DNA of 38,396 nt from a virus (lineage: Duplodnaviria; Heunggongvirae; Uroviricota; Caudoviricetes), in the IMG/VR virus record IMGVR_UViG_2675903536_000019; one strand, 5' to 3'. This document shows positions 21,001 through 24,000 of this stretch, piece by piece (the stretch's first letter is position 1; each line of letters begins with the position of its first letter). The position numbers were made by a program.

Positions 21001-24000
21001 CTGTGAATTGTGGCTGAATCTGCGGCTGCTGTTCGGTTTGTGTTGTTTTTCCCTGGCTGAAATAGCAGTCTTCCAGTTTTTCGAACACTTCCCATGCCTG
21101 ATCAGTTTCGAGCATTTTTGCGTGACGGGCTGCCCCGCGTTCTGTCCAGAGGATGAGGTGCTTTGTACGCGGTGCAACTAAGTTACTTTGAGTAACCTTG
21201 TTCTTAAATTCCCGCAATCCAGCCCCTTCCAATTTGAAGTAGTGTTTCCCACAAACAAAACGCTCGGCATTGCGTGTATAGTTCACTTTGATGTTATTAG
21301 TTTCGGTGCCATAAAGTTGTGCCAAAAGCTCGGTGGTAATAACAGGAATCTGGTTATGGGTAATCGGGGAGATGGTTTCAACAGAGATTTGAGTTGTCAT
21401 AATGACGCCCTCTAGTGGTTTCTAAACTATCACCACCGTAAGGTTCCAATCATCGGGTGGTGAGACGCACAGGGTTGGAACTACCGGGAAACCGACCGGC
21501 GAGCTTTTCAGCTCCCCCATGCGCCCCACCATAATTCAGATGTGCGCGTGCATACGACAATAAAAAACACGCTCGCGGCGTGTGTTTGTCGCGGTCTCTA
21601 TCCGGGGTTCCAATCCCGACGGCCAACTCGACCGTGCGAAGAATATAATCCCGGATAAGTGTTGTCGTCAACTCAGCATTGATGTTGTATTAATTGACAA
21701 CGCTATGCACTGTTGTTATCCTTAACAACATAAATACACGGAGTTTTTATGCCATCCAGACTGTATAAAGAGTTCATTCGCCATCTTGGGGAATCCGAAT
21801 ACATAAGGATTAAAATCTGGGAGGTGGCTCCAGCCGTTCTTGGTAGCCGCCATAACTTCAAATACAGCATGGCTTACGTTGTTGATGGTGTTTGCGTCAT
21901 GCGCTACGACAACGAAAGAGGTAAAGGCGACCACAAACACATTGGTGCTCAGGAAATCAGTACCCACTTTGTTTCCATCGAGCAACTCATTGCTGACTTC
22001 CTCCATGATGTAGAATCCATTCGCAGAGGTGCCTGATATGAAAACAGTTACAATACGTATTGAATCAATGGATGCTTTCACGGCAGATGTGTTGTCTGCC
22101 TTTAAAGCGGTTGCCGAAGGAATGACGTCAAAGAACGAAAGCATCGTTTCATTCCCAGACTGGCAAATGATGCATAAAGTGCTTACCCCTAAGCGCATGG
22201 ACATACTCATGGCGATGACTGGTGCCGGAGAACTGTCAATCCGTGAGATTGCCGCTCTGGTCGGGCGTGACGTAAAAGCCGTACACACGGATGTAACCGC
22301 ACTGATTAGCAACGGCCTCCTGGAAAAAGGAGAAAATGGAACATCTTTTCCGTATGACGACATCCACTTTGATTTTACGCTGGGTAAAGCTGCGTAAAAT
22401 TCACCGCGCCGTCATTCTGGCGGCGCTTTACCCCAGAGAAATATCAATCACCGGATTGCCACATCCCACTCCGGCTCCTGCCATCTCAAATCCGGTGAAT
22501 CATTTCTCGCCGGAATAACCATTACGTCCTTTTCCCTCCGCTCCCTTTCTATCGCCATCACAGCCAATGCTGCAACCATGATGTATTTTTGCTCGTCGGT
22601 TCCCGTTTCATAACGGTGCATGAGGGTAAACTCGGGGCGATCAGTAACCTCAATGATTTCGTTAATTTCTTTAATTTCGAGAGGAATATTGATTTTGTTG
22701 TTCACGTCATAACCTCAATATTAAAAATTCGTTAACATTAAATTTTGAATACCGGATGTTTACCCGTGTCCGGCGCACGACCTCACGTTGCAGCGTGAAG
22801 GTCTCCATTTTTCAAAACAGAGCAACAATGGAGGATAAATGGACAAAAAACTCAATCAGGCTCGCTGGAATTTTCATTACGAAACAGCCCGCTCAAATTA
22901 CTTTCTTGAATGCTTCGGGGACTCTCTGGCTATTAAAGAGGGGTATCCAAGGACTATTTATGGCTTTGACGCAATATATCTTTATCTTGCCGGAAAATAC
23001 GGATGGACTATTGCTCAGTGTCGTTCAATGTCGACTGAGGACATTCGCCTTGCTCTCGCAACAGAGCTAGAAGCATGGACACCCCCTCAAGATGTGATGA
23101 TTGATGAGTGTCTCTCCCGGAATGATTGATGTTGTTAAACTCAAATATCTTGCTCCTGGCAATAGCCTCAACGGTATTCCAGAATACCGATGGTTCTGTT
23201 TTCTGCTCTGTTTTATCAGCAGCAGAAAGTAACGTTTCTGCGCCTTTCTCAAATTGTTGTTGATACTCATCAAGCCAGGTCAGATCAGGAGTAATTCGTA
23301 CCAGTTCGAGTGAATATTCCATGGCATCCGTCATGTATTCTTTCGGGATGCCATTTTCTTCAAGAATTTCCTCAACCTTCTGGCGAATAACCGGAACCAG
23401 GAAAAGCAGTTTTGTTTCACGATAGCCAAGTAGTTTTTCCAGATCGCGAACAGCCTCTTCTGTCTGGCGCTTGCCCATCATGGATTGATGCTCTTTATTC
23501 AAATGCATGTTTAGCTCCTGTTAAGCCAATACACGGCTATGCAGACTGTTATTTGCCTGTGCGCAACGTCTATAGAATGCCAGCACACGCTGCATTGCTT
23601 CACTGTTACGGCACTCGCGACAAATTGTGTTGTAGCGTCTGTCGTAGCGCCGTATTTCCCCATCGGGTAATGCCCGGATAAGACCGGGATCAACGACAAC
23701 CGGTTTCTTTGCCTTTGCTCTCGAGAGTTTTTTGCGGGCATTTTGCCAGTCCTTACGCGCCTGCTCAGACGGGAATAATCCGTAACCTGAATTGTAAACA
23801 TCACCACTTGCGACCAGTTCTCTGGCGAGAGTGTTTATGTAATACCTTGATGCACCAGTTTTAGCTTCCAGAGCCCGTAACGTCTCACGTCCACTCTGGC
23901 GCACAAATTCAACGATCTGCTCCTTAATTTTTTCCCGCTCTTCGGGTGTAAATACTTTTGCCATAAGCTCTCCAGTTATCACTTTTCCGATGCAATACTG

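Follow-up and report, generated by a model that had tools for sequence, protein, structure and literature searches.

A conserved, mostly unannotated small gene lies antisense in the early operon of a Shiga-toxin phage, behind a leader that also precedes other small genes

Morons, a concept said to be that of Hendrix and Juhala, are reportedly extra genes that lie between the conserved genes of lambdoid phages, lambda bor and lom being examples. Convergent antisense pairs are also found in temperate phages, as in lambda, where the oop RNA faces cII. In enterohemorrhagic Escherichia coli (EHEC), antisense overlapping genes have been described that include asa, ano, pop and others (PMC6294744, PMC5960689, PMC7103648, PMC9927249). 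Here, we analyzed a locus with features of all three in a stretch of phage DNA of 38,396 nt (IMG/VR record IMGVR_UViG_2675903536_000019), the whole of which we refer to as the window. At this locus a plus-strand open reading frame (ORF) of 96 amino acids (aa) converges on a minus-strand ORF of 166 aa. We consider it likely that these are two real genes that overlap tail to tail, and that the 96-aa gene is a moron-type accessory gene placed antisense in the rightward early operon. The 96-aa gene is real, conserved and mostly unannotated, and is kin to the known lambdoid morons and overlapping genes.

Like morons, the 96-aa gene is a small accessory gene that is present or absent between the same neighbors in related phages, and it runs against the surrounding operon with its own ribosome-binding site (RBS) and presumably its own promoter, for which the window offers a candidate -10 hexamer only (TAAATT). 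Unlike morons, it has no terminator that we could find, it overlaps the coding 3' end of its neighbor by 122 nt, and its structured leader is common to at least 10 other cargo genes, so that the slot, and not the gene, is the conserved unit. The same geometry is seen for sieB, the superinfection exclusion gene of the K-12 Rac prophage, which runs antisense to the early-left operon, flanked by kilR/KilS and ydaF, and converges on ydaF with a 4-nt overlap; sieB differs, however, in encoding 162 aa and in having no similarity to the 96-aa gene in protein or leader. Use of the same leader by K-12 Rac sieB was tested with a negative result. As with asa, ano and pop in EHEC, opposite-strand proteins are encoded by one stretch of DNA in pathogenic E. 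coli and one partner is dropped by annotation, yet in EHEC a young ORF lies within an old, annotated gene, whereas the two genes of this locus share only their tails, and the one that annotation lacks is the older of the two and has a family behind it. As with oop and cII, convergent units of the early-right region overlap at their 3' ends, so that each could exert antisense control on the other; in contrast to that pair, both partners here are protein-coding, and antisense control is putative.

A preliminary description of the window had reported a minus-strand 85-aa ORF, a divergent plus-strand 96-aa ORF and a minus-strand 166-aa ORF, the last two with strong RBSs and 3' ends that overlap by 122 nt. 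An ORF listing returned the same coordinates for all three, and the overlap is present at that length, tail to tail (Table 1). Both RBSs are visible in the sequence: GGAGG at 22830-22834 lies 4 nt before the ATG of the 96-aa ORF at 22839, and AGGAG on the minus strand lies 6 nt ahead of the ATG of the 166-aa ORF at 23508. The 85-aa and 96-aa ORFs are divergent, with 133 nt from start to start. Since an antisense stretch of 40 codons would remain open by chance with a probability of about 0.15 ((61/64)^40), the overlap by itself proves nothing. The 85-aa and 166-aa ORFs have entries in RefSeq and in the GenBank phage record; the 96-aa ORF has none there, a 302-nt "gap" being left in its place, and is called in a few NCBI records (P0001, P0003). 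The preliminary description had left the choice between two real genes and one mis-call; the former stands and the latter does not, the 96-aa ORF being backed by HMMER relatives and a coding signature in its own frame, and the 166-aa ORF by the protein family phrog_25397.

The coding signature was obtained from a 72%-identical copy of window 22752-23185 in a Rac/Qin-like prophage of E. coli MS 119-7 (locus L006), in which both ORFs are open, the minus-strand stop falls at the same position as in the window, and the overlap is 131 nt. Across the 53 codons of the 96-aa ORF outside the overlap, the two copies have 12, 5 and 23 differences at codon positions 1, 2 and 3, respectively. The Nei-Gojobori ratio of nonsynonymous to synonymous change (omega) in the plus frame is 0.146, and the other five frames contain stops. 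Judged from these sequences, the 96-aa gene is under purifying selection in the plus frame.

Searched with HMMER, a set of 1.84 billion cluster representatives yielded 133 matching proteins in Proteobacteria at E<=1e-3, of which 23 also passed E<=1e-10; the majority of the 133 are 87-105 aa long and align over residues 1-88 of the 96-aa protein. By profile search, 233 clusters were retrieved at E<=1e-5, all "hypothetical" and free of Pfam domains, from Vibrio, Shewanella, Paraburkholderia, Pseudoalteromonas, Stenotrophomonas, Gallionella and others. The family shares the motif Y.L..FGD.LA..EGY....G.EA...YL..K..W.P..V..M...D.R..L..E..GW..P, and the 96-aa protein both aligns over its full length and carries this motif, keeping all of the invariant residues G27, G42, A45 and W56. 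The second half of the motif (W56 to P83), with the conserved residues W56, M64, D68, L73, E76, W80 and P83, is encoded in the overlap. AlphaFold2, run on an 85-sequence alignment, gave an all-helical model with a predicted local distance difference test score (pLDDT) of 88.8 and low confidence only at residues 81-96; the predicted helices 58-63, 66-72 and 74-79 lie in the overlap.

Curated resources hold little that resembles this protein. The phrog_5286 profile is matched by 52 of the 85 aligned relatives at E<=1e-3 and not by the window protein, which has no Pfam and no PHROG match of its own. The sole curated model that it touches is NCBIfam NF033230 (the ECs1072 family), also a prophage protein, at 26.1 bits (E 7.5e-6) between residues 41-86 and profile positions 63-108; the L006 copy reaches E 3e-7. 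The cutoff of this 142-position model is 70 bits, and the 96-aa protein is a distant relative of the family, not a member. The PDB gave neither a sequence nor a fold match and BFVD gave no match; none of the 85-, 96- and 166-aa proteins matches a defense-system model in PADLOC-DB 2.0, and a scan of GTDB species-representative genomes found no relatives of the 96-aa gene. A word-indexed protein search with the single 96-aa sequence returned near-identical copies only, because the ORF is seldom called. On the sequence evidence as a whole, the 96-aa gene is conserved, codes for protein and belongs to an old, widespread family and, of the two overlapping ORFs, this unannotated one is the better supported and has the deeper evolutionary support.

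Members of the family were found antisense in a phage tail operon, beside Thoeris/AbiJ, beside RexA and Imm_superinfect, in a Mu-like prophage and, with a long convergent overlap, antisense in the early operon of a lambdoid Shewanella prophage. A conserved partner gene was considered and rejected, since the neighbors differ in every context examined, which suggests an accessory protein that works by itself. Guessing from context, we think it most likely that the 96-aa protein acts on host physiology or on other phages. In the Shewanella xiamenensis prophage (L033, 4001-4448), the relative lies antisense between ydaS/ydaT-like and replication genes and shares 134 nt with a 100-aa ORF of the operon, again with codon position 1 opposite position 1; the same overprinting may have arisen there independently.

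Upstream of the 96-aa gene lies a conserved leader with three predicted hairpins (HP1 to HP3). HP1 pairs 22752-22757 with 22768-22773, HP2 pairs 22779-22787 with 22794-22803, and HP3 pairs 22804-22809 with 22827-22832 (CUCCAU/AUGGAG), so covering part of the Shine-Dalgarno sequence GGAGG. The leader contains an invariant 19-mer, CCGTGTCCGGCGCACGACC, at 22764-22782; a scan of IMG/VR for it found at least 120 stretches, and a literature search for its first 15 nt, CCGTGTCCGGCGCAC, found nothing. Window 22736-22850 (115 nt) matches about 990 of 5,426 complete E. coli genomes, at a median of two places per genome. In E. coli prophages, 32 distinct leaders precede at least 10 unrelated ORFs of 57-101 aa, which we term cargo. 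In alignments, conservation begins at about the candidate -10 hexamer and ends at the cargo start codon, 4-5 nt past GGAGG in most copies and 11 nt past it in L006-type copies. The cargo families are phrog_4987, 20080, 4274, 17494, 8894 (one member of which is borderline GhoS-like) and 10133, two orphans, and the 96-aa family. In most arrangements, the 3' end of the cargo meets the facing gene or extends into it, the overlap being 0, 12, 33, 44, 77, 122 or 131 nt, and two cargo types are separated from it by a gap of 80 or 168 nt. Among 24 distinct leaders, 97.8% of cells pair, versus at most 51% in slid controls, and a covariance model built from the leaders scores the window leader at 103 bits.

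In being short, conserved and structured, and in occurring in the same kind of prophages, the leader resembles the prophage small RNAs (sRNAs) of pathogenic E. coli, namely DicF, STnc100/PasD, AgvB, AsxR and PasA-C; unlike these, it matches none of their models in Rfam 15. At the gathering threshold, Rfam 15 (DicF, AgvB, AsxR and STnc100 included) had no match over 22744-22838, and at up to E = 10 over 22380-23560 it had nothing on the leader, with two chance matches elsewhere in that stretch. DicF or another known sRNA in the gap, a candidate prompted by ydfC-dicF homology, was rejected, as Rfam places DicF only in the O157 locus, some 240 nt past the slot. The Pas sRNAs, AgvB and AsxR were likewise rejected as the identity of the leader, their published locations and Rfam models not fitting; the PasB gene lies within a structural operon, PasA and PasC lie by holin/lysozyme genes, and PasD is STnc100 (bioRxiv 10.64898/2026.05.13.724894).

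The window contains a second slot of this kind. A second, diverged leader copy carries the 19-mer with one mismatch (0 expected); its HP1 is the same, the HP2 position holds another helix (CUCCAC/GUGGAG), and a CUCCU can pair with the RBS AGGAG. Its 69-aa cargo gene overlaps the 3' end of a convergent 119-aa gene by 32 nt. The N-terminal module of this 119-aa gene recurs in proteins related to the 166-aa protein, with 59% identity to P0257 over 79 aa (E 7e-25). An early-operon gene facing a leader-led cargo is thus an arrangement present twice in the window. The preliminary description had noted neither the leader nor this second arrangement (31086-31390).

We propose, tentatively and with more doubt than belief, that the leader is a cis-regulatory RNA platform, a promoter-proximal 5' untranslated region with an RBS-sequestering hairpin, for swappable small proteins that lie antisense to early operons and are turned off at the switch from lysogeny to lysis in E. 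coli lambdoid and Rac/Qin-like prophages. Apart from this wider proposal, our main reading is that the cargo is probably transcribed from a weak promoter of its own where the leader begins and would be expressed in the lysogen as long as the early operon stays repressed; the CUCCAU/AUGGAG hairpin at the RBS would hold its translation down. After induction, opposing transcription of the early operon would silence the cargo by collision and complementary RNA.

The observations that weigh against two functional genes and a leader serving the plus strand concern the overlap, the leader and the state of related copies, and are given here with the alternative explanations that they bear on. The 166-aa protein matches phrog_25397 end to end (2e-117) and phrog_1363 over residues 95-147, and it is a mosaic, in that three unrelated N-terminal modules precede its C-terminal module (about residues 100-166) in relatives. 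Of the 14 clusters in its family, all those with a source name are from E. coli, for which reason the final 40 or so codons of the 166-aa gene appear to be overprinted on the plus gene, the older of the two; they would have been gained by reading into that gene as far as the first stop. Between the window and L006, where both ORFs are intact, minus-frame omega is near 0 directly upstream of the overlap. Within the overlap, omega is 0.51 for the plus and 0.63 for the minus frame, and differences are spread evenly over codon positions (10/12/15), a pattern that either dual constraint or weak constraint would give. Conservation of synonymous sites in one frame only across the overlap, which the preliminary description had set against its own claim, was not seen in this pair. 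A trend for each half of the overlap to be constrained mainly by one protein is non-significant, the numbers being small.

One explanation of these data is that the plus frame alone is functional in the overlap, and that the last 40 or so codons of the 166-aa ORF are an unselected read-through tail to the first stop. In support of this, the tail beyond residue 147 is outside the phrog_1363 profile, the copy in phage P13374 (ORF16) stops 16 codons early, the entire C-terminal module is absent from the relatives P0263, P0266 and P0267, and the minus-frame omega, which exceeds that of the plus frame, rises to 0.87 in that half of the overlap which lies opposite the folded region of the plus protein, to which may be added that the length of the opening is within the reach of chance. 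Against this, the minus-strand stop holds the same position in two clades 28% apart, and in two lineages of P13374-type prophages, in which the 5' half of the plus gene is deleted, the ratio of nonsynonymous to synonymous polymorphism (pN/pS) in the overlap is about 0.25 for the minus frame and 0.9-1.3 for the plus frame; two lineages lacking an intact plus gene keep the full tail. A third lineage without the plus gene gives 0.84 for the minus and 0.56 for the plus frame, and pooling the lineages without the plus gene puts 11 of 22 variable sites at the third position of minus-frame codons (p = 0.08). We therefore treat an unselected tail as possible, while doubting it. Our own reading of the overlap is that both frames are probably translated, the plus gene being old and clearly constrained and the minus tail a younger, weakly constrained extension. 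A further locus (L016, IMG/VR 2703718811_000017) is 99.7% identical to the window up to 23084 and unrelated beyond, its plus protein being 109 aa with another C-terminus; the break in identity at 23084 places a recombination junction inside the overlap.

A regulatory role of the leader for the plus gene is weakened by several results. Covariation was seen in HP2 only (two pairs changed on both sides), while HP1 and HP3 are invariant and, since they never vary, are uninformative either way on pairing. A scan for the sigma-70 consensus found no promoter for the plus gene, the -35 region being poor in this copy, and a terminator scan found none between the stop at 23129 and the facing gene, which the 96-aa gene overlaps. 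The leader may instead act mainly on the minus strand, either in processing, stabilizing or terminating the early-operon transcript or by marking a boundary for recombination, with the link to cargo a by-product. This would account for P13374, in which the first 45 nt (HP1 and half of HP2) are 100% identical and the remainder is absent together with the 5' half of the cargo, for the K-12 Qin prophage, in which HP1 alone is kept downstream of ydfC with no cargo, and for Rac/Qin-like prophages, in which the element lies within a long transcript upstream of DicF. We find it unlikely, however, because conservation continues through the RBS and ends at the start codon of more than 10 different cargo genes, because the plus-strand fold beats its shuffles (z = -2.3) and the minus-strand fold does not (z = -1.2), and because the hairpins have no following U-run on the minus strand.

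Close copies of the 96-aa gene are often disrupted. Frameshifts arising from a poly-A run are found at the start of the plus gene in L004 and L014/15, and the O157 cargo (L062, L075 and L090) has a poly-A frameshift, A7 versus A6, right after the start codon. Nonsense codons occur in 5 of 12 L006-type IMG/VR loci, and both STEC1590 and phiSTEC1589-Stx1c, from Shiga toxin-producing E. coli (STEC), read GAAGG for GGAGG (window 22831), weakening the RBS of the plus gene. The poly-A run of the window, at 22845-22850, is A6, and that of L004 is A7; such varying length could reflect decay, sequencing error or slippage-based switching. With so many disrupted copies, selection must be patchy, as expected for prophage accessory genes. 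These variants, together with the RBS mutation in the most similar deposited phage, the lack of a consensus promoter and the omission by annotation pipelines, would also fit a plus ORF that is a silent or decaying relic of a real family in this phage. We judge that quite improbable, given that the window ORF is intact with a perfect GGAGG at 4-nt spacing, that all family-invariant residues are kept, that identical intact copies occur in several E. coli contigs, and that omega is 0.15 between clades. That the 96-aa ORF is a chance ORF or mis-call, as its absence from the RefSeq and GenBank annotation and its want of a Pfam or PHROG match of its own might suggest, is already refuted by its HMMER relatives (133 representatives, 23 at E<=1e-10), a coding signature in its own frame only and a confident structure model.

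The mixed orientation of the genes had been taken in the preliminary description as a sign of several independent insertions. This is right in part, in that the mixed orientation does reflect modular exchange. In related phages, the toxin-antitoxin (TA) cassette is replaced by other pairs (RelE/ParE with a helix-turn-helix protein, HigA, and others), P13374 and O104:H4 are without window 22797-23002 (which takes in the 5' half of the plus gene), and phage POCJ13 has a different plus-strand gene of 224 aa in place of the 166/96 pair. The region is a mosaic hotspot in which modules are exchanged at conserved boundary sequences, a better fit than simple insertions. The POCJ13 gene product gp20 (L005, 2790-3464) has a weak PADLOC match to PD-T7-4 (E 0.0014), and the hotspot may also hold defense candidates.

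The rightward early operon of the phage is the minus strand of the window, with the order cro-like, cII, O-like, DnaC-like, DUF1627, DUF977, 166-aa ORF, 85-aa ORF, antirepressor genes, and ninB through Q. The three-ORF region, lying between the DnaC-like replication gene and ninB to Q on this operon, is thus the nin-equivalent region. The 85-aa ORF, annotated in RefSeq and GenBank and found by tblastn in 7 phage records only, is a real, narrowly distributed hypothetical phage gene. The adjoining cassette is a plus-strand TumE/HVO_A0114 pair (21749-22397). Near it, Rfam matches, all on the minus strand, are C4 antisense RNA at 21453-21536 (71 bits), IsrK at 21562-21635 (55 bits) and sRNA-Xcc1 at 20521-20611 (69 bits); they sit upstream of ORF6N and BRO antirepressor genes, and the set suggests a P1/P7-like RNA-controlled antirepressor module. 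A tandem STnc100 pair on the minus strand, at 15583-15796 (198 bits) and 15858-16069 (139 bits), lies beyond the gene for antiterminator Q in the direction of late transcription; the 2026 preprint cited above relates STnc100 to PasD. Window 21400-24000 is nearly identical to the Stx1c prophage phiSTEC1589-Stx1c and to prophages of several STEC chromosomes, with a single base difference from the STEC1590 chromosome within 22700-23520, the one at 22831 in the RBS of the plus gene. Over 21400-31400, comparison with that chromosome (NZ_CP129345.1) shows a coordinate drift of about 970 bp between the two leader slots, and the window is thus not collinear with that record throughout.

Table 1. Positions of the genes and other elements discussed, numbered along the window.
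Feature	Position	Strand	Remarks
TumE-family toxin	21749-22036	+	Pfam PF20126 at 2e-14; RefSeq name
HVO_A0114 DNA-binding protein	22038-22397	+	Pfam PF25212 at 1e-24; RefSeq name
85-aa ORF	22448-22705	-	GTG start, GAGG 7 nt upstream; phrog_8371 at E 1.4e-55
Candidate -10 hexamer TAAATT	22739-22744	+	TAAACT in most other copies; transcription would start near HP1
Conserved leader	22744-22838	+	About 95 nt; three predicted hairpins
96-aa gene	22839-23129	+	ATG start; member of a widespread all-helical family of about 88 aa
Convergent coding overlap	23008-23129	both	Plus residues 57-96, minus residues 127-166; codon position 1 opposite position 1
166-aa gene	23008-23508	-	Rightward early operon, 12 nt after the DUF977 gene; ATG start
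119-aa early-operon gene facing the second cargo	30758-31117	+	phrog_2982 at 7e-77
69-aa cargo gene	31086-31295	-	phrog_2605 at 1.5e-45; RefSeq WP_000189936.1
Second, diverged leader copy	31295-31390	-	Leftward early operon; covariance-model match 43 bits, E 4e-10

Altogether, of the two genes that overlap in this Shiga-toxin phage, standard pipelines missed the one with the longer evolutionary history, and a small-protein family that has hundreds of clusters and lacks a Pfam entry is therefore recorded too seldom wherever its genes overlap a neighbor. The locus would be a clean natural example of overprinting, in which the folded C-terminal half of an old gene is shared with the tail of a young gene confined to E. 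coli. The leader with its exchangeable cargo, present twice in this phage and in about one fifth of complete E. coli genomes, marks where to seek small proteins that may be expressed in lysogens, and the slot offers a simple model for how prophages could switch such genes off on induction. If the leader is indeed such a regulatory platform, the 10 or more cargo families behind it would be a pool of lysogen-expressed effectors, for example exclusion or anti-defense factors.

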